A stretch of 63,284 nucleotides of DNA, the filler included, from Eubacteriales bacterium (GTDB lineage Bacteria; Bacillota; Clostridia; Oscillospirales; CAG-382): the NCBI GenBank assembly GCA_045636665.1. It is 9 parts of 9 records of this genome, joined end to end, with 100 filler letters (N's around TTAATTAATTAA, not from the genome) between each part and the next. Parts side by side here need not be neighbours in the genome. Positions count along the whole stretch, not along the records: positions 46,402 to 58,238 come from JAZTXY010000120.1; 8 more parts are not named here. One strand, given 5' to 3'. Position numbers and translations under genes: made by a program. Positions 5,043 to 60,593 of this stretch are shown one piece after another. The notes under the pieces were generated by a model. The model saw only the letters and a program-made list of their open reading frames with translations, had not been told where the DNA came from and ran no database searches. The number at the start of each line of letters is the position of its first letter. The first letter of the stretch is position 1.

Positions 5043-5142
5043 NNNNNNNNNNNNNNNNNNNNNNNNNNNNNNNNNNNNNNNNNNNNTTAATTAATTAANN
5101 NNNNNNNNNNNNNNNNNNNNNNNNNNNNNNNNNNNNNNNNNN
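5043..5142. other. Artificial contig linker
   Basis: N-run/TTAATTAATTAA/N-run with six-frame stops; identical linkers at 11058-11157, 33930-34029, 39017-39116, 42585-42684, 46302-46401, 58239-58338, 60494-60593. Confidence 0.99.
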
Positions 5143-11057: not shown

Positions 11058-11157
11058 NNNNNNNNNNNNNNNNNNNNNNNNNNNNNNNNNNNNNNNNNNN
11101 NTTAATTAATTAANNNNNNNNNNNNNNNNNNNNNNNNNNNNNNNNNNNNNNNNNNNN

Positions 11158-32711: not shown

Positions 32712-33929
32712 AAAAGGAAGAACTCAGCAATGCATTTGAATTCATCGATGATTCGATTATTGACGAAGTTAATAAAGCACGTAACTCTAAATCGCAACCG
32801 AAGCGCCGTAAGCTGATGCGATATATTGCATTGGCCGCTTGCTTTTGTATAATCTTTACGTCGTTGTTTTTTACAGTGCCTCTCTTCAACACTGTACACG
32901 CGCAGGATCTTATGGAGGGGATCACGCCGAATCAAGTTGAACCTATCGTTATCGATGAATATAACGAAAGAGTGACCGATTTTGCGATACGCCTTTTTAA
33001 AGCAAGCCAAACCGACGGCAAAAGCTCTCTCGTTTCGCCCTTGTCCGTTATGTGCGCGCTTTCGATGACGCTTAACGGTGCCGACGGAGAAACGCGTGCC
33101 CAGATGGAATCGGTTTTAGGTATGACTGCCGATGAGCTGAACAATTATATTTACAGTTATATCAATTCGTTACCCGTAAAGAATAAATACAAATTAAAGG
33201 TCGCAAACTCGATTTGGTACAGGGATAGCGAGGTATTTGTCCCCAACCGGGATTTCCTTCAAATCAATGCAGATTATTACGGCGCACAGCTTTATCAATC
33301 GGAGTTCGATTCTGGCACGCTCAAAGAGATAAACCAATGGGTCGAGCGCGAAACCGACGGAATGATACCGCAAATTCTTGATCATCTTGATGACGATTCG
33401 TTAATGGTGCTTGTTAACACGCTTGCATTCCAAGCCGATTGGGAAAAAATATACGAGAACGACGAGGTTTTCGAAAACGTATTTACTCTCGAAAACGGCA
33501 CTGAAAAAACCGTGGAATTTATGTATGACGAGCAAAATAAATATTTCGAGTCGGATAATTGCGTCGGCTTTATCAAGAATTACGTTGGCAAAAAATATGC
33601 TTTTGCAGCAATTCTTCCCGACGAGGGAATAAGTATGTCGGATTTTCTCGATACGCTTACCGGTGAAAAAATAAGCAATATGCTCTCAAACGAAAAAAAG
33701 GGAAAGGTTTTCACAAGAATACCCAAATTCAAATCAGAGTATAAAATGTATATGGCGGACACTCTGTCCGAAATGGGAATGCCCAATGCCTTCTCGCCCG
33801 AAAAGGCCGATTTCGGCTTGATGGGATCGTACGACGTCAATATCTATATCGATAACGTTATCCACAGAACCTTTATCGAGGTCAACGAAAGAGGTACGAA
33901 AGCGGGCGCTGCAACGGTGCTTCCTACAC
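32708..33929 (+). CDS. Serpin with N-terminal anti-sigma-like cytoplasmic segment and TM helix (3' truncated)
   Basis: ATGA overlap with sigma gene; DFAIRLFK, LVSPLSV..ALSM..NGADGET, INQWV..TDGMIP, LVNTLAFQADW, IPKFK, HRTFIEVNERGTKAGAAT hinge. Confidence 0.9.
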
Positions 33930-34096
33930 NNNNNNNNNNNNNNNNNNNNNNNNNNNNNNNNNNNNNNNNNNNNTTAATTAATTAANNNNNNNNNNNNNNN
34001 NNNNNNNNNNNNNNNNNNNNNNNNNNNNNCGATCCGACTTGGCAATTCAGGAGCGAAACCGTAAACAAAAAAGGCGGTACAATTACCGTCCTTAAT

Positions 34097-39004: not shown

Positions 39005-39116
39005 TAGATGCGAAGCNNNNNNNNNNNNNNNNNNNNNNNNNNNNNNNNNNNNNNNNNNNNTTAATTAATTAANNNNNNNNNNNNNNNNNNNNNNNNNNNN
39101 NNNNNNNNNNNNNNNN

Positions 39117-42584: not shown

Positions 42585-42684
42585 NNNNNNNNNNNNNNNN
42601 NNNNNNNNNNNNNNNNNNNNNNNNNNNNTTAATTAATTAANNNNNNNNNNNNNNNNNNNNNNNNNNNNNNNNNNNNNNNNNNNN

Positions 42685-46301: not shown

Positions 46302-46401
46302 NNNNNNNNNNNNNNNNNNNNNNNNNNNNNNNNNNNNNNNNNNNNTTAATTAATTAANNNNNNNNNNNNNNNNNNNNNNNNNNNNNNNNNNNNNNNNNNN
46401 N

Positions 46402-46457
46402 GTAATATTTGCTTTAATTCTTAAATTACGTACCGTTTCGCCAATCTGTAAATTCAT
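46402..46457 (-). CDS. XRE-family HTH regulator, N-terminal fragment
   Basis: GGAG RBS then MNLQIGETVRNLRIKANIT, cut by contig end. Confidence 0.6.
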
Positions 46458-46564
46458 AATAATCTCCGTTGTTTTATTTTGTAGCTATGTAATAATTATA
46501 TTATTTAGATCGTTGTATGTCAACGGACCTATTTGTAGATGAAAATTTAATCAACTGTTTAGAA

Positions 46565-46602
46565 AAAAGAGGAATTGCTCGTATATGAACAATTCCTCTT
46601 TT
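46565..46602 (-). terminator. Terminator of MBOAT-ACP operon
   Basis: AAAAGAGGAATTG..CAATTCCTCTTTT. Confidence 0.8.
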
Positions 46603-46622
46603 ATAGTTGTTTGCGGTTTTGA

Positions 46623-46859
46623 TTATGATCTTTCGGCTATAATGTCCATCATTTCGCCAACGTTTTTCATTGCGCTGACTTCTTTCATAGTAAACTTTAC
46701 ACCGAATTCGCGTTCAACTGCCGCGATAAGACGAATGTGCTCGAGACTGTCCCAATCTTCAATATCGTCAGCGGTGGTTTCACGATCAACGGTGATATCT
46801 TCGTCATCAAAAACGTTTTGGAATACTTCGTTGAGTCTTTCGTTAATGTTTTGTGCCAT
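46623..46859 (-). CDS. Acyl carrier protein
   Basis: 78 aa, acidic, DWDSLEHI phosphopantetheine site, EREFGVKF, NVGEM. Confidence 0.93.
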   Translation of the reverse strand: MAQNINERLNEVFQNVFDDEDITVDRETTADDIEDWDSLEHIRLIAAVEREFGVKFTMKEVSAMKNVGEMMDIIAERS

Positions 46860-46862
46860 AAT

Positions 46863-48650
46863 TTATTCCTCCGGATTAACTTTAATTACGTTGTTTTTGT
46901 TTTGATAATCGGTAACAGAAAGCTTCCATTCGGTCGTGCCGTCTTCGCCTTCGAATGTTTTTTCAAAACCGAAATCATTAAAGAGGTTTTTGACCATTCC
47001 GTTCTTTGCGGTGGGGTAGTAGTGACCTATTATTGTGTCAATCGACCTATCTTTGCACTCTTTTACAAGAGTATCAAGCATTGCATATTCCATATTCTTT
47101 TTAAGAACACGGCAGCTCATAAGCCAAAGGTCGATATCGCAAATATTTTCTTTGATTTCGCCGATAACAACCGAAACAACACCGTTGTCGCCAAACGCAT
47201 CGGAAAGCTTGCCGTAAAGAGTAATATGATTGCCGTCGGTAGCAACCGATTCGATTTCGGGTTGAGTATAGCGTTTTGTGGTAAGATTGAACTGGTTAGA
47301 TTTGTTGGTCAATTGGGTAATTCGTTGCATATAAACGGGCGAAAACGGTTTAATCTCGCCTTTCATATCCAAGCTCAAAAGATATTCTGTATAATCGGCA
47401 AATTCTGTTGAAAGCTCTGCGCGTTTAACGTTTGCTTTATACATATCGTTGCGCTTTAAGTCGTCTGCAGAGAAGTTTGTGACCTCGAAATATCCGTTTC
47501 TGTCGATCGTGCGAATATAATCGGCAGGTACGTCAAACAAAGGTATTGCGATGCCTTTTATACTGCGTTCAACAAGTGCGCGTTCTGTGGGGTTATCATC
47601 GGCAAAGACGAACGAATCGATTCCAAGATCCATTTCGTTTGCGGTAGCAACAAGGTTTCTGTCCTTAGTTTCCCAATTTGCCTTGATAACAATAAAGTCA
47701 TCGGGACGAAGCACTCCTTCGGGGTGATTAAGACCTGCGATTGCGTTTTCGTGATCGTTTTTCGAAGCAACAGTCAGCATAATACCAATGCTTTTTTGTT
47801 TTTTAACGTATTCCTGAAATGCTTTGTAACATTCGGAAGTCGCTGTTTCTTCGCCGATTTCAATTCCTTCAACTCCGTCATCGCCAACGACGCCACCCCA
47901 AAGAGTATTGTCGAGGTCGAGCGCTAAAACCTTTTTGTTTTTGCCGAAGATGGATTTGATAATATTCGAAAGGTTCTTTGTAACGTAAGGAACCGCATCA
48001 AGCGAGCATGCGTATTTATACATATACCACGCTTGGTCATCAAACCATTTGTCAAGACCGAAGCAGGAAGCGATATAATTGATATCGCAAATGTAAAAGC
48101 CCTGATTTTGTTGAGCATATTCCGCAAAACGCAAATTCAAACGGGTTATGAAGTTGACAGCACCGTGAATGTCATAGCAATCGCGGTTACCGAAAAGACG
48201 GTAGGGCGGAAGCTCGAAATTGTTTTGGATTATCGGGCAGGAATAAACACTCGCCAAACGGTTCCACATTTTTTCGTAATAAGAAAAACGTTCGTTCAGC
48301 TTGTTGTCGATTTCTTCGGCTGTATCGGTCGTTTCGGGAAGGAAAGAGGCGATGTTTCTGTAACTTGTGTGGATATAGATAATATCGGGGGAAAACTCCG
48401 AAAGCTCGGGGTTTTCAAACATCGCATCCTGCCAGAATCGGTTATATTCCGATTCGTAAAATTCTGGCTCGATGCCCTCTGAAAGTAAAAATACTTCAAG
48501 GGTTTTAATAAAATCATTTGTCGTTGAGCCGCCCAAAACGGCGATTTTTTTCTTTATGCGTTTACTGCCGTCGTTAATGAGCTCACGTCGTGTTCTTTTA
48601 CGGTGGTCGGTAAGTGCATCAATATCAAAGGGATATGCGGTTACAGGCAT
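46863..48650 (-). CDS. FkbH-like HAD-IIIC phosphatase/glyceryl transferase with N-terminal extension
   Basis: LDLDNTLWGG, ASKN, FADDNPTER, QLTNKSNQFNLT, DAFGDNG, WLMSCRV. Confidence 0.92.
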   Translation of the reverse strand: MPVTAYPFDIDALTDHRKRTRRELINDGSKRIKKKIAVLGGSTTNDFIKTLEVFLLSEGIEPEFYESEYNRFWQDAMFENPELSEFSPDIIYIHTSYRNIASFLPETTDTAEEIDNKLNERFSYYEKMWNRLASVYSCPIIQNNFELPPYRLFGNRDCYDIHGAVNFITRLNLRFAEYAQQNQGFYICDINYIASCFGLDKWFDDQAWYMYKYACSLDAVPYVTKNLSNIIKSIFGKNKKVLALDLDNTLWGGVVGDDGVEGIEIGEETATSECYKAFQEYVKKQKSIGIMLTVASKNDHENAIAGLNHPEGVLRPDDFIVIKANWETKDRNLVATANEMDLGIDSFVFADDNPTERALVERSIKGIAIPLFDVPADYIRTIDRNGYFEVTNFSADDLKRNDMYKANVKRAELSTEFADYTEYLLSLDMKGEIKPFSPVYMQRITQLTNKSNQFNLTTKRYTQPEIESVATDGNHITLYGKLSDAFGDNGVVSVVIGEIKENICDIDLWLMSCRVLKKNMEYAMLDTLVKECKDRSIDTIIGHYYPTAKNGMVKNLFNDFGFEKTFEGEDGTTEWKLSVTDYQNKNNVIKVNPEE

Positions 48651-48660
48651 AATATTCTCC

Positions 48661-50085
48661 TTAATATTTCAGAAGTTTTGTAATATAATCGCGTTTGCTG
48701 CCATTTACCGCAAAAGCGGACATTGCAAAGCAAACGTCGGTGATTCCGTGCTCTTGAATAAACTCTTTTGCGTTGAGCTTGAATTCGCGGTAGTCCGCCA
48801 TATAAACTTCTTCGAAAGAGGAAAGTACATAGGGCGCAAGAGTGTTTCCGTAGCTATCCTTGAATATAAGAAGCTTTCTTCCGTTGTTTATATCGGATTG
48901 GATGTGTGTGGTATAAGCGTCGCCATAAATGAACTTGGTATATCCCTTACTGCTCGAGAACAAGGTTCTTCCGCTGATGGGATTTTTAAAGTTGCTTACG
49001 CTGTAATATGTAACGGTATGCTGACGGCTGGGTACGTACCAATACAAGGTGTCGGGGTAATTGCCCAAAACGCTTGCATAACGAACCAAGCTTCCTTTAA
49101 CACCGTCAACGCTTTGCTCGGTAAATGTGGAAATATCATCAAAAGGTGTACCTGCCACACGCGCAAGCTCTTTTGCGGCGTAATATCCGCCCAATCCGCT
49201 CCAGTGGAAGTCAGTGCGGAGATAGATGTATTCGTCAGTGTGAGAGCTTAAAGCGGTTAACGCATCAACATATTTGACGTCAACAAGGTTGTCCTTAATA
49301 CCGTTAAAGCAATTGACTGTATTCTTTATGGAATTAGGATATTTTTCGGGCGCATAAAATGCAGCGGAGGTGGGGCAAGGCATTATATAAACGTTAACGT
49401 TAGCGCCGACCGCTTGCTTAAATTCATTAAGCTTTTGTGCAGTCTTTTCGCCGCCCGAGGCACTGCCGCCAAACTGTTCCATACCTCTGTTACCAACGAT
49501 TATAATGCCGTTGGTGATATATGCCGAGTCGCTGGGAGGAGTAACCGGAATATCGGATTTTTTGATTATTTCCAAAGAAAGATATTCGGCAGAGGTGCTG
49601 ATAACTTTAACGTTTTCGGGCACCTTATAGACAATCAAAAATTCGAATGTTCCGATAGAAGATGCGCCGGATACGTCAACGTCTGCGGTGATTTGAGACG
49701 AATCGAAAGCGTCTATGACATCTTTTGTGCCTTCAATTGTGATTTTTTGATTCTTTGCATAACCTGAGTTAACCGAAAAACCTGCGTTTCCAAGCGCAGT
49801 TGTTCCGTGAAGGGTAACCGAGATTTCAAATTCCTTTTGAATGGTAGCGGTTGCAGAATCACTATTATCGGTGGTGTTTGAGCTTTCTTCGGTTGCAGAG
49901 CTGTTGTTTTCTGTGCTTGTGCTCTCTTCGGACGATTCGGTTTTCGAAACGTTTGATTCGCTACCGATTGAGCTTTCGGTTTCGGAAATGTTCGAAACTT
50001 CAGAAGTGTTTTCGCCCGAGGTATCGCAAGCGATAAGAATTATACAAAGTAAAACGGGAAGAAGCAAAAGGGTTAATCTTTTCAT
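48661..50085 (-). CDS. DHHW-family (AlgJ/AlgX-like) lipoprotein with YbbR-like domain
   Basis: Lipobox LIAC; ITIEG..ITADVDVS (YbbR-like); IYLRTDFHWSGLGGYY; LLIFKDSYGN. Confidence 0.85.
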   Translation of the reverse strand: MKRLTLLLLPVLLCIILIACDTSGENTSEVSNISETESSIGSESNVSKTESSEESTSTENNSSATEESSNTTDNSDSATATIQKEFEISVTLHGTTALGNAGFSVNSGYAKNQKITIEGTKDVIDAFDSSQITADVDVSGASSIGTFEFLIVYKVPENVKVISTSAEYLSLEIIKKSDIPVTPPSDSAYITNGIIIVGNRGMEQFGGSASGGEKTAQKLNEFKQAVGANVNVYIMPCPTSAAFYAPEKYPNSIKNTVNCFNGIKDNLVDVKYVDALTALSSHTDEYIYLRTDFHWSGLGGYYAAKELARVAGTPFDDISTFTEQSVDGVKGSLVRYASVLGNYPDTLYWYVPSRQHTVTYYSVSNFKNPISGRTLFSSSKGYTKFIYGDAYTTHIQSDINNGRKLLIFKDSYGNTLAPYVLSSFEEVYMADYREFKLNAKEFIQEHGITDVCFAMSAFAVNGSKRDYITKLLKY

Positions 50086-50087
50086 TA

Positions 50088-51509
50088 TTATTTACAAAGC
50101 TCCTCAAGTGCGGTTAAATAATCTTTGCCAACTGCGGAAAAAGTGCATTCAGCAAACAAAACGTCGGTAATTCCGAATTCGTTGATGGTTTCTTTTAAGT
50201 TTTTGCTGTATTTTCTTCCGTCAACGATATAGATTTCTTCAAAGCCCTCCATCATAAAGGGAGCAAGAGCGTTTCCGTAGCTGTCTTTTACGATAAGAAG
50301 CTTTCTGCCGTTTTTGCATTCTTCGGATTTTGCTTTTACGCAATAAGTGTCACCCAAGATGAAGGTGGAATACCAGCTGCCGATTTTTTTATCGGAAATC
50401 TCAAAGAAGAAGCCGTCATGCTCGCTAAGTTTGCTTTCATCAATCGGTCCGTTAGAAAATCCGCTTGAAGAATAGTATTCGGTGCTGTATTTAGTGTCGG
50501 GAATAAAAGAAAGGAAATCCTCGGGATTGTTTTGGAGCACCGAGTTGTTGTCCTTTGAGGAGTAAACGTAGTAATAGGTGCCCAAATATCCGGGTCTTCT
50601 TACTGCTTCGAATTCGGAAATATCATCAAATGCAACACCTGCTTTATCGGCAAACACACTCGATGCATAATAAGCACCCAAAGCGGTCCAGTGGTGGTCG
50701 GTACGTGCATATATTTCTTCATTTGCGTGGCGACCCAATATATCGTAAATGTTTACGTCGATTACCTTGTCGGAAAGCGTTTTGGCGATAGTGTCGATAT
50801 CGTTCTTATTGCGTATAGCAAGCTTTTGATATTTTTCTTGCGAGGTTTGTCCGAGGTAATAAGCGCTTGATTTGGGAATTACCATCGAGTAAACGTTAAC
50901 CGAGGAATCAAGACCTTCGGCAAAGTTGTTGAGAATTTCGGCGTAACGAATCGATCTTTCTTCGCTGCCGTAGTATATTTCCATTGCGCGGTTACCGATT
51001 ATGAGGATTGAACCTGAAATTTCGGCAAGTCCGCCGCCCTGTTCGGGCACGGTTTCTTCGGGTTGGGAGTTGATTTCTGGTTCGGATTCATCGGGGATGA
51101 AGCTGCTTTCCGGAGCTTCGGAGGAATAATCCGAAGAGGTGCTGTTTTCAACCTGCGAGCTTTCCGTTTCGGCGGAAGTGTCATCGGTTACGGATTGCTC
51201 TTGGTCGGGTTCGGATTCTTCGGGTCGGATGGTTATGATTTTTTCTTCTTCTTCCAAACCGTAAAGACCGTTGATTTTGGTTTCAAAGTCTACAAAGGTA
51301 TCGCGTCCGAAAATAGTATCGGAAAAGTAGTCGCTTATGCCCTTGAAATACTTACCCGAAAACAGTGAATCAAAAGAAAATTCAGGCCATTCCTTTAAGG
51401 TTGTATAGTTCGATTCGGTTTCTCTCGGAAGAAATACACAGAAAACGAACATAAATAAAAGCGTTAAGGCTAAAAGTATAGCGCATAATTTAATTGTGAA
51501 ATTTTTCAT
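50088..51509 (-). CDS. DHHW-family (AlgJ/AlgX-like) membrane-anchored acyltransferase
   Basis: N-terminal TM; PEFSFDSLFSGKY; IYARTDHHWTALGAYY; LLIVKDSYGN; VDGR. Confidence 0.9.
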   Translation of the reverse strand: MKNFTIKLCAILLALTLLFMFVFCVFLPRETESNYTTLKEWPEFSFDSLFSGKYFKGISDYFSDTIFGRDTFVDFETKINGLYGLEEEEKIITIRPEESEPDQEQSVTDDTSAETESSQVENSTSSDYSSEAPESSFIPDESEPEINSQPEETVPEQGGGLAEISGSILIIGNRAMEIYYGSEERSIRYAEILNNFAEGLDSSVNVYSMVIPKSSAYYLGQTSQEKYQKLAIRNKNDIDTIAKTLSDKVIDVNIYDILGRHANEEIYARTDHHWTALGAYYASSVFADKAGVAFDDISEFEAVRRPGYLGTYYYVYSSKDNNSVLQNNPEDFLSFIPDTKYSTEYYSSSGFSNGPIDESKLSEHDGFFFEISDKKIGSWYSTFILGDTYCVKAKSEECKNGRKLLIVKDSYGNALAPFMMEGFEEIYIVDGRKYSKNLKETINEFGITDVLFAECTFSAVGKDYLTALEELCK

Positions 51510-51519
51510 AAGTTATCAC

Positions 51520-52932
51520 CTAAAAGTTCCAATAGAGGAAAGGATTATTGCTGCTGAATGTTTTTACAAGAACGCTTGTGTTGATAAACAAAAGTAATAT
51601 TGCCAAAACAGTTGCAGTTATAATGCCGATCGAGTATACCATCGGGCTTGAATTTTCGAAGCGCTTTTTGAGATAAGGAATAATGGGGAAACAAGCGATA
51701 AGTGCGATTGAGAATATAAAGACGTTGGTAGTAACTACCGTGAAAAAGTCATCGTTATACAGAACGTTGCCGTTAGCGCCTACGAGATTTTTGAAGAAGT
51801 TGATAAGGTCGCTTGAATTTTCAAACTTAAAAATACCGAAACCGATAAGTATTACAAGCTTGTTGTAAATATGCATTAATACAGTCGGCGCGTTTTTAAG
51901 TCGCTTTTTGCCGAGTAACGTTTCAATGTAAATGAATACACCGAAATAGAGACCCCAAATTACATAGTTCCAGCTTGCACCGTGCCAAAGTCCGGTTGTA
52001 AACCAAACGAGGAACAACGACAAAACAGCACGTCTTTTGCCAAAAATGGGCAGATATAACAAATAGTCGCGGAAGAAGCTGCCAAGCGAAATGTGCCATC
52101 TTTGCCAAAATTCAGAAATTGAACGGCACATAAAGGGATGCTTGAAGTTTTCGTCAAAGTGGAATCCGAACACTCTACCGATACCGATTGCCATATCCGA
52201 ATAACCCGAGAAGTCAAAATAAACCTGCATCGAATAAGCAATGACGCCGAACCAAGTAGCGGCAACAGATGCCTCGGATACGTTTGTGCCAAAACATTTT
52301 TCGACAATCAAATTAAGATTGTTTGCCAAAAGAACCTTTTTGGAAAGACCGATAACGATACGCAAACCGCCTTCCATTGCGTCCTTAAAAGTGGTTGTGC
52401 GGTTATCGATTTCATCTGCAATTGTTTGATAACGGACTATCGGGCCTGCAACCAATTGCGGGAAAAGAGAGATGTATAACAGTAATTTATGAAAATGCTT
52501 TTGAACAGGAACCTTTTCCCAATATACGTCGATCATATAGGACATAATTTGGAAGGTATAGAAGCTTATACCAAGCGGCAAAGCGAGCTTGAGAAGCGGT
52601 ATCGAGGCACCGAAAATGCCATTAATATTGCCGATAATAAAGTCGGTATATTTAAACAAACCAAGCATGCCTATATTGTAAATCAGCGAAATAACCATCG
52701 CCAGCTTACAGTTTTTCGTGCCGCGGGATTTGTCCATCCACAATGCAAGGAAATAGTTGATCGCCGCACTTGCGATGAACAGCAGGATTTTAATCGGCTC
52801 GCCGCAAGCATAAAAGATTAAAGAGAATACGATAAGTACCCAGTTTTTGACCTTTAAGCTTTTGAATAAAAAGTAAAACAAAAAGCATAAAGGCAAAAAC
52901 GCAAACATAAAGAATAAATCTGCAAAAATCAT
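51520..52932 (-). CDS. MBOAT O-acyltransferase (AlgI/PatA/DltB-like)
   Basis: LPLGISFYTFQ, FPQLVAGPI, YFDFSGYSDMAIG, FWQRWHISL, GLWHGASW; C-terminal NPFLYWNF. Confidence 0.95.
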   Translation of the reverse strand: MIFADLFFMFAFLPLCFLFYFLFKSLKVKNWVLIVFSLIFYACGEPIKILLFIASAAINYFLALWMDKSRGTKNCKLAMVISLIYNIGMLGLFKYTDFIIGNINGIFGASIPLLKLALPLGISFYTFQIMSYMIDVYWEKVPVQKHFHKLLLYISLFPQLVAGPIVRYQTIADEIDNRTTTFKDAMEGGLRIVIGLSKKVLLANNLNLIVEKCFGTNVSEASVAATWFGVIAYSMQVYFDFSGYSDMAIGIGRVFGFHFDENFKHPFMCRSISEFWQRWHISLGSFFRDYLLYLPIFGKRRAVLSLFLVWFTTGLWHGASWNYVIWGLYFGVFIYIETLLGKKRLKNAPTVLMHIYNKLVILIGFGIFKFENSSDLINFFKNLVGANGNVLYNDDFFTVVTTNVFIFSIALIACFPIIPYLKKRFENSSPMVYSIGIITATVLAILLLFINTSVLVKTFSSNNPFLYWNF

Positions 52933-52969
52933 AATTAATTCCTCGTGATTTTGTTAAAGTATATATCTG

Positions 52970-53806
52970 TTAATTTGATTGTTTTGTTTGATTGTTAACC
53001 TTCGATGAAAGGATACAGTTGATTTCGGCGCCTATAAACATAATATACATACAAATATACAACCACAGCATTAAAACTATAATGGCGGTTAATGAACCGT
53101 ATACGTTGGCATAGTTGCTAAAATTGTCAACATAAAATGAAAATAGAATCGAAAACGAAACCCATCCTGCGCCTGAAATAACTGCGCCCGGAATTTGGTC
53201 TAAAATTTTCATTTTTTTGCAGGGCATACTTTTGTATATGATCGAGAAAAACAAAACAAGTATTATAAATCCTAAAATGAAACGCAGGGAGGAGATGATA
53301 TAAACTAATCCTTTTAGGTTTGGGAAGAAGGAGTTCGCAAGATTAATAAGCGAGTCGCCGAAAACCATAATAAGCAAAACTCCGCACACGATGACGATAA
53401 AAGCGAGCGTGTAAATGATGGAAAGAAAACGTACCCAAAGGTATTTTCTTGTTTCTTTGATTTCGTAAACAGAGTTTAAACCGCCCATAATTGCGTGAAC
53501 ACCGCGCGAGGCTGACCATAGCAACAAAGCTGCCGAGATGATGGTGTGGGTTAATCTTCCCTCGGAAAGTATTTCTTCAATGAAATCGTTTATAAATTCT
53601 CCCAAAACGCCTGGCATTACCTCGCTTATTGTTTTGGTAATTGCCTCGCCCGTATCGCCGAACAGCTGCAGCAACGATAAAAGCAACATTATAAGAGGAA
53701 TCAGAGAGAGAAACATAAAGTATGCGGTTTGCGCCGAATAAGCACTGATTCTGCTTGCTGAAACCTTGCGCAGAAAGTAACGGGTGCTTTTGATTAGCCG
53801 TTGCAT
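52970..53806 (-). CDS. YihY/virulence factor BrkB family membrane protein
   Basis: AYSAQTAYFMFLSLIP, LWSASRG, YGSLTAIIVLMLWLY..IGAEIN. Confidence 0.9.
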   Translation of the reverse strand: MQRLIKSTRYFLRKVSASRISAYSAQTAYFMFLSLIPLIMLLLSLLQLFGDTGEAITKTISEVMPGVLGEFINDFIEEILSEGRLTHTIISAALLLWSASRGVHAIMGGLNSVYEIKETRKYLWVRFLSIIYTLAFIVIVCGVLLIMVFGDSLINLANSFFPNLKGLVYIISSLRFILGFIILVLFFSIIYKSMPCKKMKILDQIPGAVISGAGWVSFSILFSFYVDNFSNYANVYGSLTAIIVLMLWLYICMYIMFIGAEINCILSSKVNNQTKQSN

Positions 53807-53884
53807 ACGTTCTCTCCTTTCCGAAAAATATGCGATTGACTTGCATAACGGCGTGTGTTATAATTACGGCATAATAAACTTGAG

Positions 53885-54391
53885 GTGTTGATTGTGCATA
53901 GTTTTAACAGCCGTTTTTTGGAAGACGAATTGATAGAGCGCTGGGATGAATTCACGTCTCCTGCGCGTTTTGCAGGCGCAGATGAAATGATGGATTTGAT
54001 TTACGTATCCAAACGCAAAGGCAATCAGGTGCGACTTGTGCGCCGCGCAGGATCAAAACGCGACCCTTTTTCTTGTGTGTTTTATGGAAAAATAGTTAAG
54101 AGCGAGCAGGGAAGTGCGGTAAAAGGCATCTTTGCAAAGTCGTTGTTCGATTATATTGCGATTGCATTAATAATTGCACTGTTTGCTTATATTAGATGCA
54201 TTGTTATCGAACGGGGTGATTCGCCCGTAACGGTAAATATTTTGCTCGGTGCGTCGATTATCATTGGCGGATTTTTATTGTATAACACCCGTTCAATTAA
54301 ACGCAAATATGCCGAATTTATTTCGCGGATAACCGATACCGAAAACGATAAATTTATCAGTAAAAAGGATTTGCGCGAAAATAATGATTAA
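53885..54391 (+). CDS. Hypothetical membrane protein
   Basis: 168-aa ORF, GAGGTG RBS (start may be GTG 53894), two TM segments. Confidence 0.65.
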   Translation: MLIVHSFNSRFLEDELIERWDEFTSPARFAGADEMMDLIYVSKRKGNQVRLVRRAGSKRDPFSCVFYGKIVKSEQGSAVKGIFAKSLFDYIAIALIIALFAYIRCIVIERGDSPVTVNILLGASIIIGGFLLYNTRSIKRKYAEFISRITDTENDKFISKKDLRENND

Positions 54392-55053
54392 TTGTTCAAA
54401 AAATCACCGAGTAATTTTTCGCTCAACTCCCCAAAGTTATATGCTACGTAGTTAGCGCCTTCGTTTTCAAGTTCATATTTAGATGCAGTTCCGGTGTAGA
54501 TTCCGAAAGAATCTATGCCGGTTCTTTTTGCGCCGATAATATCGTATTTCATATCACCGATCATAAGAACCTTGTTAAGATTATCGGTGATACCGAAGAG
54601 CCTTAACGCTTCTTTAATAACCTCGTCCTTCTTGCTGATGCTTCCGTCGGCATTTGCGCCCGAGATGAAGTCGAAATAATTTAAAATCGAATGGTGCTCC
54701 AACATTTTAACGGCTTGATCTTGCGGTTTTGAAGTAGCAACGCCGAGAATATAACCTGTCTCCTTTAATTTTGTCAGAAGCTGTTTTATTTCGGGGAAAA
54801 TGCAAGATTCGATATATCCGAATTTGTCATAGCGTTCGTTATATATTTCAATAGCTTTATCGGCATCTTTATCGGACAATCCGTAAAGCACAGAAAAAGA
54901 GTGCTTTAGGGGCGGGCCAAAAAAGTTCATCAGATTTTTTGTTTCAACAAAAATTCCAAATCTTTTTAATGCGTTTTGGGCGGATTTTAAAACACCTTCG
55001 GTGGTATCTATCAAAGTACCGTCAAGATCAAACAAAAGGTATTTGTATTTCAT
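54388..55053 (-). CDS. HAD-superfamily hydrolase (Gph/5'-nucleotidase-like)
   Basis: LFDLDGTL, GPPL, ATSK, MIGDMKYDIIGA. Confidence 0.9.
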   Translation of the reverse strand: MKYKYLLFDLDGTLIDTTEGVLKSAQNALKRFGIFVETKNLMNFFGPPLKHSFSVLYGLSDKDADKAIEIYNERYDKFGYIESCIFPEIKQLLTKLKETGYILGVATSKPQDQAVKMLEHHSILNYFDFISGANADGSISKKDEVIKEALRLFGITDNLNKVLMIGDMKYDIIGAKRTGIDSFGIYTGTASKYELENEGANYVAYNFGELSEKLLGDFLNN

Positions 55054-55211
55054 AAATTTACATTTCCAATCGCAAAATTATACAGATACATTATATCATA
55101 TATGATTGTCATTTTCAATTGATTTTAAAAAAATACTTGAAAATAAATGATATTTATGATAACATTAATCATCACTTAGTTACTATGATAATGTTGTGTT
55201 TGGAGGGCGTT

Positions 55212-55832
55212 ATGAGAAAAATAATTACAATCGGCAGACAGTTTGCGTCTATGGGTTCTGAAATCGGAACGCAGTTGTCCGAGCTTACCGGAATTCCTTG
55301 TTATGATCGTGATGCGCTTGTTAAGATTGCGGAAAAACACGGCATTCCCATTGACACTTTTGAAAAAGCCGATGAGCAGGCGACTTCGAGCTTTTTGTAT
55401 TCCTTGGCGATATCAAGCTATAGCGGAAATATTGCGCATTTTGGTATGAACAATCAGGTTCTTACCGACCGTGTTTTTAATATTCAATCTCAAGAAATCA
55501 AAAAAATCGCCGCTGAAGGCGATTGCATTATTATCGGCAGATGTGCAGATGATATTTTAAGTGATTATGATGGCATTTTGAAAATATTTATCCATGCGCC
55601 GATGGAAGAACGTGTTAAGAATTTGGTCGAGCAATACGGTATGGATGAAGTTGCCGCAAGAAAAAGAATTGCAAAGGACGATAAAAAGCGAGCGTCGTAC
55701 TATAATTTCTACACCGGTAAGGGCTGGGGCGATCCCAAAAATTACCATATGAATATCGATAGCAGCCTTTTGGGTGTAAAAGGGACTGCAAAAATGATAA
55801 AACATCTTATCGATGAATTTTACAGTGAATAA
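55212..55832 (+). CDS. Cytidylate kinase-like family protein
   Basis: IITIGRQFASMG, IIGRCAD, DDKKRASYY..YT..WG..NYH..IDS; start reassigned to 55212 (GGAGG RBS). Confidence 0.88.
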   Translation: MRKIITIGRQFASMGSEIGTQLSELTGIPCYDRDALVKIAEKHGIPIDTFEKADEQATSSFLYSLAISSYSGNIAHFGMNNQVLTDRVFNIQSQEIKKIAAEGDCIIIGRCADDILSDYDGILKIFIHAPMEERVKNLVEQYGMDEVAARKRIAKDDKKRASYYNFYTGKGWGDPKNYHMNIDSSLLGVKGTAKMIKHLIDEFYSE

Positions 55833-55872
55833 ATTGTTTGATTCACTCTAAATACCAATTGGAGAAAAGGAT

Positions 55873-57024
55873 ATGAATATTGAATGGGAAATTGATCTCC
55901 CTACAAACGCAGATTCGGAAGATTATCAGTATGAATCTCCTATTTATTGTGACGATGATGTTCTTTATTATATTACTGACCGTCGAAATCCTGTTCTTCA
56001 TATTGTTGACACGAATTCGGGAAATGAAAAAATCCAACCGATAATTTCGAGATGTTCAGTGATACCGTCTGAATATTTTTTCGAGAAGTATCGAGATAAG
56101 CTGATTATTTATACGGGCAAGCTTTGGTTTTACGAAAATGAAAGCGTTATCGGATTTCCGCATATTCATATAGACGGTAAAATTAACTCTTATGTAATAA
56201 AAGACAATTATTTTGTGTTTGCAGATTATTCTAATTTGATTTGTTTTAATTTGGACACGCAAAATGTTGAATGGCAGCTTGGAATAGACAATACAAAGCG
56301 TTATAACACGGGAGAACTTTCGTTGTTTGGCCAAGATATTGCATGTTACGGCAATGATAAGCTTTTAATTGTTGATATTTTTAGCGGAACAATAAAGGAT
56401 CAAATAAAAATACCGCGTATCGATAAAGCTTTCGCACCTATTAAAATTGATGACAGAGAGGTGTTGATAGGTTTCACCAATTGGTCAAATGCCGGAATAT
56501 TAAGATACGATATGAAAGCACGTAAAGTCGTTTGGAAAAACAAGCGTTCATTCGAGGGTCCGCTTCTAAGATGCAAAATATATCAAAAGGACGATTTTGC
56601 ATATTGGGTGAAAAATGACACCGAGCTAATTTGCATTGATATAAATAGTGGCGATGAGGTGTACAGTGTTAAGACTACGCCTTGGCTGTACACGGATCTT
56701 TTGTTTAAACATCAAAATCTGTTTTATGGCACTGCGGGGAGAGATGGTTATTTTGTGAATCTTGATCCTGAAACGGGATGCGAAAAATGGTCTTTCTTTT
56801 TAAAAAACGGTTGTGCATATTTCGATTTTTATGATGAATCTGTTATTTTGGGGGATTTTGAAAAAACAATTTATCGGATTGACGCTACGAGCGGAGAAAT
56901 TTTAAGCAAGATATTTGTTGACGGTGAGGTTGTTGGAAGAATCAAAACGCACCGTAACAACATATATACAGTTGTTTGGGGAAATGAACGCGCATCGATT
57001 CGTTTGATTAAAATTAAAATTTAA
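55873..57024 (+). CDS. PQQ-like/BamB-type beta-propeller protein
   Basis: Repeated ICFNLDTQNVEW, ICIDINSGDEVY, NLDPETGCEKW, RIDATSGEIL blades. Confidence 0.75.
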   Translation: MNIEWEIDLPTNADSEDYQYESPIYCDDDVLYYITDRRNPVLHIVDTNSGNEKIQPIISRCSVIPSEYFFEKYRDKLIIYTGKLWFYENESVIGFPHIHIDGKINSYVIKDNYFVFADYSNLICFNLDTQNVEWQLGIDNTKRYNTGELSLFGQDIACYGNDKLLIVDIFSGTIKDQIKIPRIDKAFAPIKIDDREVLIGFTNWSNAGILRYDMKARKVVWKNKRSFEGPLLRCKIYQKDDFAYWVKNDTELICIDINSGDEVYSVKTTPWLYTDLLFKHQNLFYGTAGRDGYFVNLDPETGCEKWSFFLKNGCAYFDFYDESVILGDFEKTIYRIDATSGEILSKIFVDGEVVGRIKTHRNNIYTVVWGNERASIRLIKIKI

Positions 57025-57059
57025 TAATCATTCGCTTATAAATTAGGCAATATAAAACA

Positions 57060-57093
57060 GAAAACCGTCCGCGAAATGCGGACGGTTCTTTTT
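57060..57093. terminator. Bidirectional terminator
   Basis: AACCGTCCGC-GAAAT-GCGGACGGTT with flanking A/T tracts. Confidence 0.8.
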
Positions 57094-57101
57094 GTGTTTT
57101 A

Positions 57102-58223
57102 TTAGTGGCAGATGATCTTTTCGGTTTCTTTGTCGAAAATGTGGATACGGGAGGTATCAACAGCAATCTTAATAACATCGCCTGCTTTAGCAGTGGATTG
57201 AGAAGAAACGCGGGAAACAAGGCTGGTTTCTTGACCAACGTTGAGGTAGAGATAAATTTCTGCACCCATAAGTTCGGTGAATTCAACGTTTGCTTCGATA
57301 ATGGTATCCTTGAATTTTTCCATGTAAACGGGTTCGTCATGGAGAAGTTCGGGACGGAGACCTGCGATAACTTCTTTGCCGATGTAGTCAGCAAGATTGG
57401 TATCTTCAAACTTTTCGGGTTGAAGCTTGAACTTAACGTTTTCGAATTCGAGGAAGCAATCATCCTGTCCCTTGGGCTTGGTGATGGTTGCATTTACGAA
57501 GTTCATTTGAGGAGTTCCGATAAAGCCTGCAACGAAGATATTGCAAGGGAAGTCGTAAAGGTTTTGAGGAGTATCTACCTGTTGGATGATACCATCCTTC
57601 ATAACTACGATACGGGTTGCCATGGTCATAGCTTCGACCTGGTCGTGGGTAACGTAGATAAAGGTTGTTTGGAGCTTGTTGTGGAGCTTGGTAAGCTCGG
57701 TTCTCATGGTAGCACGGAGCTTAGCGTCCAAGTTGGAAAGAGGTTCGTCGAGAAGGAATACCTTAGGTTCACGAACGATTGCACGACCGAGTGCAACACG
57801 CTGCTTCTGACCACCGGAGAGCGCCTTGGGCTTTCTGTCGAGAAGGTGGGTGATGTCAAGAATTCTTGCTGCTTCTTCAACGCGGCGCTTGATTTCTTCT
57901 TTTCTTACCTTACGGAGTTTAAGACCGAATGCCATGTTGTCGAAAACAGACATGTGAGGATAAAGAGCGTAGTACTGGAAAACCATCGCGATATCTCTGT
58001 CCTTAGGAGCTACGTCGTTAACCAGCTTATCGCCGATGAACAGTTCGCCTTCAGAGATTTCTTCCAGACCGGCGATCATACGCAGGGTGGTAGACTTACC
58101 ACAACCGGAGGGACCTACCAGAATCAGGAATTCCTTGTCCTTGATTTCCAGGCAGAAGTCGGAAACGGCAGTAACGCCGCCGGGATACTTCTTGTAGATG
58201 TGTTTCAGAGATAAGCTAGCCAT
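57102..58223 (-). CDS. Sugar ABC transporter ATP-binding protein (MsmX/UgpC/MalK-type)
   Basis: GPSGCGKSTT, LSGGQKQR, LDEPLSNLDAKLR, YVTHDQ, TOBE C-terminus. Confidence 0.95.
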   Translation of the reverse strand: MASLSLKHIYKKYPGGVTAVSDFCLEIKDKEFLILVGPSGCGKSTTLRMIAGLEEISEGELFIGDKLVNDVAPKDRDIAMVFQYYALYPHMSVFDNMAFGLKLRKVRKEEIKRRVEEAARILDITHLLDRKPKALSGGQKQRVALGRAIVREPKVFLLDEPLSNLDAKLRATMRTELTKLHNKLQTTFIYVTHDQVEAMTMATRIVVMKDGIIQQVDTPQNLYDFPCNIFVAGFIGTPQMNFVNATITKPKGQDDCFLEFENVKFKLQPEKFEDTNLADYIGKEVIAGLRPELLHDEPVYMEKFKDTIIEANVEFTELMGAEIYLYLNVGQETSLVSRVSSQSTAKAGDVIKIAVDTSRIHIFDKETEKIICH

Positions 58224-58338
58224 TCAAAAAATCCTCCTNNNNNNNNNNNNNNNNNNNNNNNNNNNNNNNNNNNNNNNNNNNNTTAATTAATTAANNNNNN
58301 NNNNNNNNNNNNNNNNNNNNNNNNNNNNNNNNNNNNNN

Positions 58339-60493: not shown

Positions 60494-60593
60494 NNNNNNN
60501 NNNNNNNNNNNNNNNNNNNNNNNNNNNNNNNNNNNNNTTAATTAATTAANNNNNNNNNNNNNNNNNNNNNNNNNNNNNNNNNNNNNNNNNNNN

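Follow-up and report, generated by a model that had tools for sequence, protein, structure and literature searches.

A candidate carrier-protein-fed MBOAT-DHHW-FkbH-ACP operon for cell envelope acylation in a gut Clostridia genome

Analysis of a 63,284-nt stretch of DNA from an Eubacteriales bacterium (the whole of which is hereafter called the window) has identified a five-gene operon that encodes an MBOAT, two exported DHHW proteins, an FkbH-type enzyme and an acyl carrier protein (ACP), and that we regard as a real, conserved and uncharacterized variant of Dlt/PatAB-type envelope acylation. The overall explanation that we favor on balance is that these genes form a self-contained envelope acylation operon whose acyl group is drawn from a carrier protein. 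The operon probably loads glycolysis-derived glycerate on its own carrier and passes it via the MBOAT to two surface transferases. A more specific proposal, which we consider a serious possibility but stop just short of calling probable, is that it represents a second, Dlt-independent carrier-protein route in which glycolytic glycerate, from 1,3-bisphosphoglycerate, becomes ester-linked to peptidoglycan or a different wall glycopolymer via a specialized MBOAT lineage with its own basic docking face and a two-step DHHW relay. If true, this would constitute a form of cell-envelope “glyceroylation” not yet described, in an order where about one in seven genomes carries an FkbH domain. No description of carrier-fed MBOAT-DHHW-FkbH-ACP acylation was found in the open literature searched, in keeping with an earlier sequence-only reading of this DNA whose author was aware of no characterized example of this exact arrangement.

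Table 1. Features of the operon and its surroundings, in window coordinates
Feature	Position	Strand	Length	Basis
MBOAT membrane O-acyltransferase	51520..52932	-	470 aa	
DHHW-family ecto-transferase 1 (DHHW-1; PatB1-like, SGNH-related)	50088..51509	-	473 aa	
DHHW-family ecto-transferase 2 (DHHW-2)	48661..50085	-	474 aa	
FkbH-type loader	46863..48650	-	595 aa	
Dedicated acyl carrier protein (ACP)	46623..46859	-	78 aa	
Intrinsic-terminator-like hairpin, 16 bp + U-run	~46565..46602	-		Sequence and folding
BrkB/YihY-family membrane protein, upstream neighbor	52970..53806	-		Pfam BrkB match

ORF calls and translations place the five co-oriented genes (Table 1) at intergenic gaps of 10, 2, 10 and 3 nt. 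A terminator-like hairpin lies 21 nt past the ACP stop codon and has no counterpart elsewhere in the operon. Its folding energy is -21.6 kcal/mol (z = -8.27), equalled by 0 of 200 shuffles; it was read from the sequence, and a simple terminator scan gave no minus-strand terminator after the ACP gene. The sequence-only reading had proposed a five-gene operon with gaps of 10 bp or less and a common terminator, which is borne out by the ORFs, the coordinates and the hairpin folding, and its naming of the genes as MBOAT, DHHW, DHHW, FkbH and ACP agrees with Pfam and NCBIfam HMM searches. The motifs it had listed (DxHW, KDSY and an SCR cysteine) were all located, as DHHW at residue 271, DFHW at 292, KDSY at 408 and 409, and Cys513. 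Hydrophobic segments are absent from FkbH and the ACP and number about eight in the MBOAT, while DHHW-1 has one anchor and DHHW-2 a lipobox. The same-strand BrkB/YihY-family gene, which ends 37 nt upstream of the MBOAT start, is probably outside the module; a BrkB match adjoins the cassette in 1 of 80 related loci, that of the near-identical L001 alone.

The window is composed of contigs chained by N spacers, and the contig bearing the operon (G000:C120, window positions 46402-58238) is 11.8 kb long. The earlier statement that there are no PKS, NRPS or adenylation genes on the contig holds for these 11.8 kb, which are its whole basis. In the relative L001, whose FkbH is 97% identical, the 10 kb on either side contain only housekeeping genes. 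Judged from both its own contig and L001, the operon is surrounded by housekeeping genes rather than by a polysaccharide locus. The genome encodes two phosphopantetheinyl transferase genes.

The FkbH protein scores above cut-off with TIGR01686 (261.5 bits, cut-off 146.65), with the HAD-IIIC model TIGR01681 (61 bits, cut-off 35.75) and with FkbH_N (PF21211; 64.2 bits, cut-off 27; 2e-17), and it has the HAD motifs and the C-terminal Cys that mark membership of the FkbH family. It is a full-length cytoplasmic protein comprised of FkbH_N, a HAD-IIIC phosphatase domain and a GNAT-like C-terminal acyl-transfer domain, the GNAT-like fold being taken from a predicted model of mediocre quality (mean pLDDT 69.8, pTM 0.46). 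The HAD motifs are D245-x-D247-x-T, S296-K-N and D351-D-N and the C-terminal domain contains the invariant motif WLMSC513RVL, with D245xD247xT, S296KN, D351D and C513 invariant in 12 of 12 FkbH homologues. We take Cys513 to be the catalytic cysteine of the FkbH literature. The protein also matches structure 3SLR (1.5e-52). The product of a HAD-IIIC gene from a zwittermicin-type NRPS/PKS cluster is 26% identical (E = 3e-27) with its DxDxT, SKN, DD and LMSCRV blocks in register, and a Streptomyces homologue of equal full length is flanked by a KSIII gene on one side and an ACP-plus-PPTase pair on the other. By analogy with this family chemistry, FkbH would form glyceryl-S-ACP from 1,3-bisphosphoglycerate.

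Tailoring genes, such as those for an oxidase or a methyltransferase, are absent from the operon, and the simplest candidate for the transferred group is therefore unmodified glycerate. A different acyl group, which we consider unlikely, would leave the rest of the machine as proposed, with FkbH loading some other small acid, phosphorylated or activated, or with glyceryl-ACP being converted by enzymes encoded elsewhere (for example to lactyl-, pyruvyl- or hydroxymalonyl-type groups). Identity to FkbH homologues in PKS/NRPS contexts is only 26-30%, and FkbH may therefore use another phosphorylated acyl donor. In addition, related cassettes hold extra enzymes beside the ACP, namely a glyoxalase/VOC-fold gene in both Sinorhizobium meliloti pSymB (L082) and a Synergistales locus (L012), and MaoC and SDR genes in L045, so the cassette family extends beyond a single acyl group. 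However, the genes of the present operon lie too close together (10 nt or less) for a tailoring gene to fit between them, and the invariant phosphatase and Cys motifs fit an acyl phosphate bearing a second phosphate, of which 1,3-bisphosphoglycerate is to our knowledge the only common example among metabolites. From the family chemistry of FkbH, together with the lack of tailoring genes in the operon, we infer that a glyceryl group would be the one transferred.

The partners of FkbH are similarly intact. The ACP matches the PP-binding model PF00550 (2.6e-5; 24.8 bits, cut-off 20.8), has a net charge of -12, and has a phosphopantetheine site, W36-D37-S38, that is invariant in a 28-row alignment; its profile gives 88 bits to an uncharacterized ACP structure, 2LML. 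The MBOAT matches PF03062 (3e-21), and its alignment to the DltB structures 6BUG and 8JEM (1.4e-20) covers the two His motifs. All 28 aligned rows keep His280 (WQRWH) and His317 (WHG). Membership of DltB itself was rejected, as the MBOAT reaches 149.3 bits with the DltB equivalog model TIGR04091 (cut-off 375) and is no closer to it than a carrier-less paralogue (162 bits). The genome has a second set, an MBOAT-DHHW-AlgX-like trio without a carrier (contig C86), and its second MBOAT is 41% identical to that of the operon.

FkbH has at least 599 genome matches, and conservation of this gene arrangement was analyzed in the best 80. Among these 80 closest loci, 71 have an ACP gene just downstream of FkbH, 59 contain an MBOAT gene and 35 contain a DHHW gene. 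Where both flanks extend to at least 5 kb (49 loci), MBOAT genes, DHHW genes or both are found in 42 loci, and the remaining 7 have neither; three of the seven scanned loci of this latter kind (L022, L039 and L045) are sugar-nucleotide or nonulosonic-acid loci. We also used an even sample of 151 genomes from the order of the window, in which 23 genomes have an FkbH domain and 127 have MBOAT homologues. The 13 long-FkbH loci of this sample include an MBOAT in 10, an ACP in 11 and a DHHW gene in 8, and one long FkbH (L089) stands alone. The sequence-only reading had staked itself in advance on finding FkbH and ACP conserved next to MBOAT and DHHW genes in relatives, and the MBOAT counts in both sets of loci uphold it. 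Sister variants in several phyla have other ecto-domains (a GDSL-like or no-Pfam protein, a CE4-like protein), and some cassette variants, for example L027, sit within polysaccharide loci. Ruminococcus flavefaciens 007c (L065) is among the cultured bacteria that carry the cassette.

A tree of 64 MBOATs, with SH-aLRT as support, unites in one clade (SH-aLRT 100) the 16 MBOATs that adjoin FkbH and 4 unlinked MBOATs from FkbH-bearing genomes, in which the MBOAT is on another contig than FkbH. All 37 MBOATs without an FkbH neighbor, which include the 16 closest by score as well as the second MBOAT of the operon's own genome, lie outside this clade. Members of the coupled clade are confined to FkbH-bearing genomes (12 of 12 in the order sample, window included), and every MBOAT match of at least 49% identity outside the operon's genome is also from an FkbH-bearing genome (11 of 11). 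By this phylogeny, the FkbH-coupled MBOATs are a lineage of their own.

A model of the MBOAT-ACP complex scores 0.64 versus 0.14 for the best control, with a mark that is reached by 116 of 157 solved complexes versus 2 of 215 mismatched pairs. The model runs have at least 97% of contacts in common and a partner pLDDT of at least 83, although the pass may mirror likeness to known complexes, and not binding by this pair, because DltB-DltC complexes are solved. Modelled contacts run from ACP residues 34-46, including Ser38, to MBOAT residues 288-306, 334-343 and 138-140. At or near this interface, W138 is present in 20/20 members of the coupled clade versus 1/37 other MBOATs, F297 in 19/20 versus 0/37 and K299 in 18/20 versus 0/37. 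The net charge of MBOAT residues 338-346 is +4.2 in the coupled clade versus +1.5 in the others, and that of residues 292-306 shows no difference between clades. Two of the nine strictly discriminating positions are at the modelled interface, among its 21 residues (one-sided Fisher p = 0.057), which is only a weak enrichment of clade-specific residues. In the model, the phosphopantetheine Ser of the ACP faces an MBOAT surface that has some clade-specific basic residues.

These observations bear on whether the operon might instead combine two independent functions that share no more than their location or regulation. In that case the MBOAT and DHHW proteins would O-acetylate a wall polymer from acetyl-CoA, as has been proposed for PatA1/PatB1, and FkbH and the ACP would supply glyceryl-ACP to an acceptor in the cytoplasm (a lipid, glycolipid anchor or sugar nucleotide, for example). 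The MBOAT-less FkbH-ACP pairs of the three sugar-nucleotide loci noted above fit such a split, as do the carrier-less MBOAT-DHHW sets found elsewhere (contig C86 of the same genome among them) and an MBOAT that is not notably DltB-like. We nevertheless consider it distinctly unlikely, given that the coupled clade holds none of the 37 sampled carrier-less MBOATs and that its members, even when unlinked, occur only in FkbH-bearing genomes of the order sample. The tight spacing of five genes ahead of a single terminator and a complex model that clears its controls and places Ser38 at the interface also argue against it, and the operon encodes no cytoplasmic acyltransferase able to use glyceryl-ACP.

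Both putative ecto-transferases match the DHHW model PF14286, with DHHW-1 at 201 bits (4e-59) and DHHW-2 at 96 bits (3e-27) versus a cut-off of 25. DHHW-1 has one N-terminal membrane anchor followed by an acidic Ser/Glu-rich linker, and contains the motifs D271-H-H-W, KDS410Y and D430-x-R. DHHW-2 has the signal of a lipoprotein (Cys20 in the lipobox LIAC), a linker rich in Ser, Thr and Glu, and a YbbR-like domain at residues 101-162 (3.8e-7), and contains D292-F-H-W, KDS411Y and D431-x-R; in its DFHW block the first His is replaced by Phe, and the Asp and second His are retained. DHHW-1 aligns with 4NZK at 204 bits and with PatB1 from Bacillus cereus (5V8D) at 38 bits, and the DHHW, Ser and D-x-R blocks of both proteins align with PatB1 (5V8D/5V8E) and 4NZK. 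A protein or membrane lipid as acceptor in place of a wall glycan, with the DHHW proteins acting there or mainly as esterases, is very improbable. In its favor, neither an SLH-domain protein nor a TagF-type polymerase was found in the 80%-complete genome, and the operon lies amid housekeeping genes. Against it, the sole characterized DHHW enzyme, PatB1, is described as acting on a polysaccharide of the secondary cell wall, which it acylates (PMC9487903); the transferase-type blocks aligning with PatB1 are retained in both DHHW proteins; and variants such as L027 lie inside polysaccharide loci.

We propose that glycerate is carried from the cytoplasm to a wall polymer as follows. The cytoplasmic FkbH-type enzyme would take 1,3-bisphosphoglycerate and bind the acyl group through Cys513 in the GNAT-like C-terminal domain, the enzyme's HAD domain would strip the 3-phosphate, and the glyceryl group would then move to the ACP, onto the phosphopantetheine arm that Ser38 carries. 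Motifs for these loading steps are intact, and the catalytic motifs of FkbH, ACP and MBOAT are invariant across relatives. The very acidic glyceryl-ACP is predicted to bind the MBOAT from the cytoplasmic side, in the way that DltC docks on DltB, and the MBOAT, using His280 and His317, would carry the acyl group across the membrane. Outside the membrane, the anchored DHHW-1 and the lipoprotein DHHW-2 would accept it on their catalytic serines, through PatB1-like Ser-His-Asp catalysis that includes a D-x-R oxyanion block. The two DHHW proteins may form a two-step AlgJ/AlgX-like relay, and would esterify a hydroxyl of a cell-wall polymer.

For completeness, we compare the operon with known systems. 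The sequence-only reading had called it Dlt-like, which stands as regards mechanism (a coupled MBOAT lineage, modelled docking of Ser38, and no DltA above cut-off) and falls as regards membership of the Dlt family. As in Dlt, a cytoplasmic enzyme would charge a dedicated carrier protein (about 80 aa) with a small acyl group, an MBOAT that has the identical two conserved His motifs would move the group across the membrane, and an SGNH-related ecto-enzyme would complete transfer; the modelled ACP-MBOAT docking also resembles the DltC-DltB arrangement, as far as the available part of that work describes it. Unlike the ATP-dependent adenylating ligase of Dlt, the loader is an acyl phosphate-using HAD/GNAT-like enzyme of FkbH type. 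The 13 genome-wide matches to the DltA model TIGR01734 in this 80%-complete genome are all below cut-off (best 126 versus 559.85 bits) and none is in the operon. No DltC chain is among the 20 PDB matches of the ACP profile (E up to 0.01), and the MBOAT is far below the DltB cut-off (149 versus 375 bits). The ecto-enzymes are two DHHW proteins in place of DltD; their Pfam matches are to DHHW and ALGX, with none to DltD. DltX is a small peptide with a role in the Dlt pathway, and the 2-10 nt between genes of the operon are too short for a DltX-like small ORF. Finally, the group transferred here would be a neutral hydroxy acid whereas that of Dlt is a cationic amino acid.

Alginate O-acetylation proceeds as an ordered relay involving AlgJ and AlgX. 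Like the AlgI/AlgJ/AlgF/AlgX system, the operon has one MBOAT followed by two SGNH-related ecto/periplasmic proteins, one anchored and one with an extra binding-type domain, and this arrangement suggests a relay by analogy with AlgI/J/X. DHHW-2 also matches the ALGX Pfam model above cut-off (30.5 bits, cut-off 26.5). The operon differs in having no AlgF, in a fold family that is DHHW and not AlgX/AlgJ proper, and in a donor that would be carrier-bound.

Pairs of MBOAT and DHHW proteins are, in the available parts of the published accounts, known or proposed wall-polysaccharide acylators, with PatA1/PatB1 of Bacillus cereus described as O-acetylating secondary cell-wall polysaccharide (PMC9487903) and CcsH/CcsI proposed to acylate clostridial cellulose (PMC7710045). 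The operon shares with them an MBOAT paired with a DHHW ecto-transferase and conserved DHHW, Ser and D-x-R blocks, and it has the makings of a PatA1/PatB1-type pair in an exported DHHW protein with all blocks and an MBOAT gene 10 nt upstream with conserved histidines. Those systems are described in the same partial accounts as transferring acetyl groups without a carrier or loader, whereas the present operon has FkbH and ACP, and its MBOAT is in a clade apart from carrier-less MBOATs. Loading of a glyceryl group onto ACP by FkbH is otherwise described from polyketide, tetronate and zwittermicin-type pathways (PMC7489565). The operon resembles these pathways in a TIGR01686 match above cut-off, in HAD and Cys blocks that are in register and in a stand-alone ACP gene directly after that of FkbH. 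It differs from them in sequence identity (only 26-30%), in the lack of a PKS, NRPS, KSIII or oxidizing/methylating partner in the operon, and in that the client of its ACP would be a membrane acyltransferase.

The operon has the form that the sequence-only reading gave it. Pfam and NCBIfam profile searches assign its five products as an MBOAT, two DHHW proteins, an FkbH-domain protein and an ACP, and the five co-oriented genes are separated by gaps of only 10, 2, 10 and 3 nt in the order of transcription. The single terminator described earlier is also present, as a terminator-like 16-bp hairpin with a U-run located 21 nt past the ACP stop codon. This hairpin was found by reading and folding the sequence (a simple terminator scan gives none on the minus strand after the ACP), and its folding energy of -21.6 kcal/mol (z = -8.3) was equalled by none of 200 shuffles. 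A promoter-like match at the head of the operon overlaps the MBOAT start codon and is therefore not counted as its promoter. No RNA run was listed as containing the operon, and one DNA run shared 0.05 of its sequence words. Also rejected was a sixth operon member, the same-strand BrkB/YihY gene just upstream of the MBOAT, which neighbours the cassette in just one of the 80 loci. Elsewhere on the contig, TTGACA and TATAAT with a 17-nt spacing match a sigma-70-type promoter perfectly, and the ORF after them runs off the contig end.

Features of the window and of the comparison loci, with coordinates
Feature	Coordinates	Strand	Description
MBOAT	51520-52932	-	470 aa ORF; PF03062, 3e-21
DHHW-1	50088-51509	-	473 aa ORF; PF14286, 4e-59
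DHHW-2	48661-50085	-	474 aa ORF; PF14286, 3e-27; YbbR-like domain; ALGX match above cut-off
FkbH-domain protein	46863-48650	-	595 aa; TIGR01686 261.5 bits (cut-off 146.65); FkbH_N and HAD-IIIC
ACP	46623-46859	-	78 aa ORF; PP-binding carrier protein
Operon contig (G000:C120)	46402-58238		11.8 kb
Promoter-like match, rejected	52957-52928		overlaps MBOAT start codon
Sigma-70-type promoter match	46523-46495	-	ORF after it starts at 46456 (46402-46523)
Dockerin-bearing F5/8 type C protein	9604-11031	-	other contig
ECF-type sigma factor gene, then serpin-family gene	32151-33982	+	serpin PF00079, 1e-75
Spacers	5043-5142, 11058-11157, 33930-34029, 39017-39116, 42585-42684, 46302-46401, 58239-58338, 60494-60593		each 44 N, 12 bases, 44 N
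Second MBOAT trio, same genome (G000:C86)	L083 5609-9607	-	no FkbH or ACP
Split cassette in window's genus (G138)	L084 82-10059
Sinorhizobium meliloti 2011 pSymB cassette	L082 3356-9386

The window joins separate contigs end to end, with sixteen N runs at eight joints, so gene order across the joints does not represent real synteny. Thus, the earlier statement that no PKS or NRPS occurs on the contig holds for the genes of the operon contig, which is only 11.8 kb and one of several in the window. The remaining genes on this contig are housekeeping or unrelated, and the 10 kb on either side of the cassette in the relative with a 97% identical FkbH (L001) are likewise housekeeping, for example BipA, a Mur ligase and ABC ATPases. 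Consequently, the operon is a stand-alone module outside any PKS/NRPS or polysaccharide locus.

An FkbH-alignment search of genome contigs gave at least 599 matches, of which the best 80, a set biased to close relatives, were fetched and their ORFs searched with the window's proteins. Among these 80 best-matching loci an ACP is located within 3 kb downstream of FkbH in 71, an MBOAT within the locus in 59 and a DHHW gene in 35, with a single DHHW in 27 of the 35. Flanks of 5 kb or more are available on both sides in 49 loci. Of these, 17 are arranged as in the window (closely similar MBOAT, between one and three DHHW genes, FkbH and ACP), 22 have FkbH-ACP-MBOAT with a more distant MBOAT, 3 have DHHW-DHHW-FkbH-ACP with no MBOAT nearby and 7 have neither MBOAT nor DHHW. 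A less biased sample, 151 genomes drawn evenly from the window's order, contains an FkbH domain in 23 genomes and 16 of 96 genera; 23 of the 25 FkbH places outside the window's own genome were fetched, with two contig-end fragments left out. Thirteen of the order-sample FkbH proteins are long (at least 900 bits with the family profile), and these are accompanied by an MBOAT in 10 cases, an ACP in 11 and a DHHW gene in 8. Conservation of FkbH and ACP beside MBOAT-DHHW in relatives, on which the sequence-only reading had staked its proposal, is therefore borne out in both samples, and coupling of FkbH-ACP to MBOAT/DHHW is well supported at the gene level.

The cassette varies in its ectodomain partners and in its layout. 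In four of five scanned distant-MBOAT loci the gene after the MBOAT encodes a protein of 330-490 aa for which Pfam gives either no match or a weak one of GDSL type, and in the fifth (L027) DUF6056 and GDSL-type genes come next. A third coupled type (L092, L098 and L103) combines a short FkbH of ~350 aa that lacks FkbH_N with an MBOAT and a ~600-aa protein that has a C-terminal polysaccharide-deacetylase (CE4)-like domain; L103 has an extra ~100-aa small ORF that may be a carrier. The S. meliloti pSymB cassette is composed of a VOC/glyoxalase-fold gene, an MBOAT, a gene for a 409-aa protein, an ACP and an FkbH-like gene. The 409-aa protein has no Pfam match, a capsule-synthesis (PF05159) gene lies a few kb off, and the host is a genetically tractable model organism. 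The window's type of cassette also occurs in the cultured Ruminococcus flavefaciens 007c (L065). In the split cassette from the window's genus, the MBOAT is grouped with the ACP and two or three DHHW genes, and a more divergent long FkbH follows only after two genes on the opposite strand, which encode a PHP-domain protein and a 748-aa protein with a GDSL-lipase domain. DHHW-DHHW-FkbH-ACP loci with no MBOAT within the fetched flanks occur in two Ruminiclostridium MAGs (L036, L052) and in one genome, G139 (L099), that has a coupled-clade MBOAT on another contig (L108). Three of seven scanned loci without MBOAT or DHHW (L022, L039, L045) are located inside sugar-nucleotide or nonulosonic-acid loci, which suggests a cytoplasmic use of the same FkbH-ACP loader pair. 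Their neighbours include NeuB, a CMP-sugar transferase, a DegT aminotransferase, MaoC, an SDR and a carbamoyltransferase; an ACP is beside FkbH in L039 and L045, and none was found in L022.

MBOAT homologues are near-universal in the order (127 of 151 genomes), so it can be asked whether those coupled to FkbH are special. The MBOAT tree has 64 rows (quick IQ-TREE search, LG+G4) and samples ~40 of more than 250 MBOAT matches. Sixteen rows are located beside FkbH (the window's, 7 order-sample rows and 8 taken from the 27 in our MBOAT alignment A3, whose other 19 were omitted for size) and four are from FkbH-bearing genomes with MBOAT and FkbH on different contigs. A further 37 are carrier-less (16 of the 17 best-scoring, 9 second copies in FkbH-bearing genomes, 11 lower-listed and the genome's own second MBOAT), and seven MBOATs of the other two coupled types serve as outgroup. 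The 16 and 4 coupled MBOATs form one clade with SH-aLRT support of 100 that includes none of the 37 carrier-less rows. Since every order-sample member of this clade (12 genomes including the window's) comes from an FkbH-bearing genome, the coupled-clade MBOAT and FkbH are co-inherited even when they are not adjacent. The second trio in the window's own genome codes for an MBOAT of 461 aa, a DHHW protein of 391 aa and an AlgX-like protein of 467 aa, and its MBOAT, 41% identical to that of the operon, is outside the coupled clade. This trio adjoins a TspO gene and a gene for a large GDPD-domain protein.

All five proteins retain the residues of their families. Across all 12 homologues of 59-88% identity, the FkbH blocks D245xD247xT, S296KN, D351D and WLMSC513RVL show no variation (P0101, which has internally duplicated stretches, was dropped from the alignment). 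The FkbH model has a mean pLDDT of 69.8 and a pTM of 0.46 and was used only for the fold of the C-terminal domain, which is GNAT-like, with the geometry between domains set aside. The MBOAT aligns with DltB structures and keeps both His motifs (WQRWH280 and WH317G), which are invariant in 28 of 28 relatives. Both DHHW proteins align with B. cereus PatB1 at the DHHW motif, at the serine of KDS(Y/F) and at D-x-R; in DHHW-2 the motif reads DFHW, with the Asp and second His kept. The ACP has an invariant W36-D37-S38 and a net charge of -12. The sole solved relative of FkbH is an N-terminal-plus-HAD fragment of the uncharacterised BF1531 (3SLR), each DHHW protein scores 204 bits against the orphan structure 4NZK, and the nearest solved relative of the ACP is the uncharacterised "putative ACP" 2LML (88 bits), with DltC absent among the structure matches of the ACP profile. 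All three are structural-genomics entries without assigned function. Hydropathy analysis gives no hydrophobic segment in FkbH or ACP, about eight in the MBOAT and one N-terminal anchor in DHHW-1, and DHHW-2 has a Ser/Thr/Glu-rich linker after its lipobox (LIAC). The rest of the 80%-complete genome has two ACPS-family PPTases and one FkbH, and a profile search across it found no DltA above cut-off.

Modelling supports binding of the ACP to the MBOAT. With both family alignments as input, the complex model scored 0.64, 0.64 and 0.62 over three runs against 0.14 for the best control. Of 157 solved complexes 116 reach that mark, as do 2 of 215 mismatched pairs. At least 97% of contacts were common to the runs and partner pLDDT was at least 83. 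Because DltB-DltC complexes have already been solved, this pass may stem from the likeness to them. The modelled contacts are between ACP 34-46 (including Ser38) and 58-63 and MBOAT 288-306, 334-343 and 138-140. At or next to this predicted interface, W138 is present in 20 of 20 coupled and 1 of 37 carrier-less MBOATs, K140 in 18 and 6, F297 in 19 and none, and K299 in 18 and none, respectively, and the net charge of residues 338-346 is +4.2 versus +1.5. When clade-discriminating positions are defined strictly, only 2 of the 9 are among the 21 interface residues (Fisher p = 0.057), an enrichment at the modelled interface that is suggestive but not significant. Two other candidate distinctions were rejected: the charge of MBOAT 292-306 as a clade marker (+3.4 and +3.0 versus +3.2), and a greater likeness of the operon MBOAT to DltB (149 bits, versus 162 for the carrier-less paralogue).

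Regarding the acyl group, the operon FkbH is 26% identical (E = 3e-27) to the HAD-IIIC protein of a hybrid NRPS/PKS cluster on B. thuringiensis pBMB422, which we take to be zwittermicin-type, with the DxDxT, SKN, DD and LMSCRV blocks in register. A Streptomyces homologue, over 94% of the length, is encoded between a KSIII gene and an ACP-PPTase pair, beside an AfsA-like gene. The acyl groups of FkbH-type loaders are treated in passages of PMC7489565 and PMC3679948. Since genes for a dehydrogenase, a methyltransferase or a VOC-fold protein are all absent from the operon, glyceryl-ACP itself would be the simplest FkbH product and the predicted decoration a glycerate ester. Glycerate is not foreign to bacterial surface polymers: relevant passages describe L-glycerate esters on gellan (PMC4432689) and glyceric acid in the lipoteichoic acid repeat of C. 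difficile (PMC13558421).

In the proposed working, the FkbH loader and ACP carrier would act in the cytoplasm, the MBOAT would move the acyl group through the membrane and the DHHW proteins would work outside it. As with AlgJ/AlgX there are two putative ecto-transferases, here an anchored protein and a lipoprotein that has a YbbR-like domain in addition, which by analogy suggest either a relay or two acceptors. The second DHHW is an add-on, since most relatives with DHHW have just one. Neither an SLH domain nor a TagF-type polymerase was found in the 80%-complete genome, which neither names nor excludes an acceptor. Another contig encodes a dockerin-bearing F5/8 type C protein, a hint of a cellulosome-type surface. 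Elsewhere in the window, a serpin-family gene comes immediately after the gene for an ECF-type sigma factor.

The DHHW family is already known, as passages on PatB1 and the proposed CcsI indicate (PMC9487903, PMC7710045). The sequence-only reading knew of no characterised example of the arrangement, and we likewise found no description of the FkbH-ACP plus MBOAT/DHHW combination in the full main texts of openly accessible papers. In that literature FkbH and MBOAT are mentioned together only for cyanobacterial aeruginosin-type peptides, FkbH with bisphosphoglycerate and glyceryl only for polyketides, and ACP with MBOAT and SGNH only in a cellulose review. There was no joint mention of HAD-IIIC and membrane-bound O-acyltransferase or of FkbH and Dlt. 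Among the matches listed, FkbH was absent from those on ACP, O-acyltransferase and teichoic acid, and nothing relevant occurred for DHHW or for glycerate, polysaccharide, acyltransferase and FkbH.

Esters of Gram-positive envelopes, such as D-alanine and acetate, govern surface charge, autolysins, resistance to lysozyme and cationic peptides, surface-protein anchoring and recognition by phages and host. If the proposal is true, a glycolysis-fed, ACP-dependent route would bring a new chemistry to the envelopes of Clostridia that are abundant in gut and rumen, and would couple surface composition directly to the state of central carbon metabolism. A function would thereby be provided for the orphan entries 3SLR, 4NZK and 2LML and for many genes annotated only as "HAD-IIIC family phosphatase". 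To our knowledge, Dlt is the only carrier-protein-fed MBOAT route known so far. The operon is real and conserved and encodes an uncharacterised variant of a system type already known, with a chemistry predicted from sequence. Carrier-fed MBOAT acylation has its precedent in Dlt, and the FkbH/ACP pair has its precedent in polyketide chemistry.
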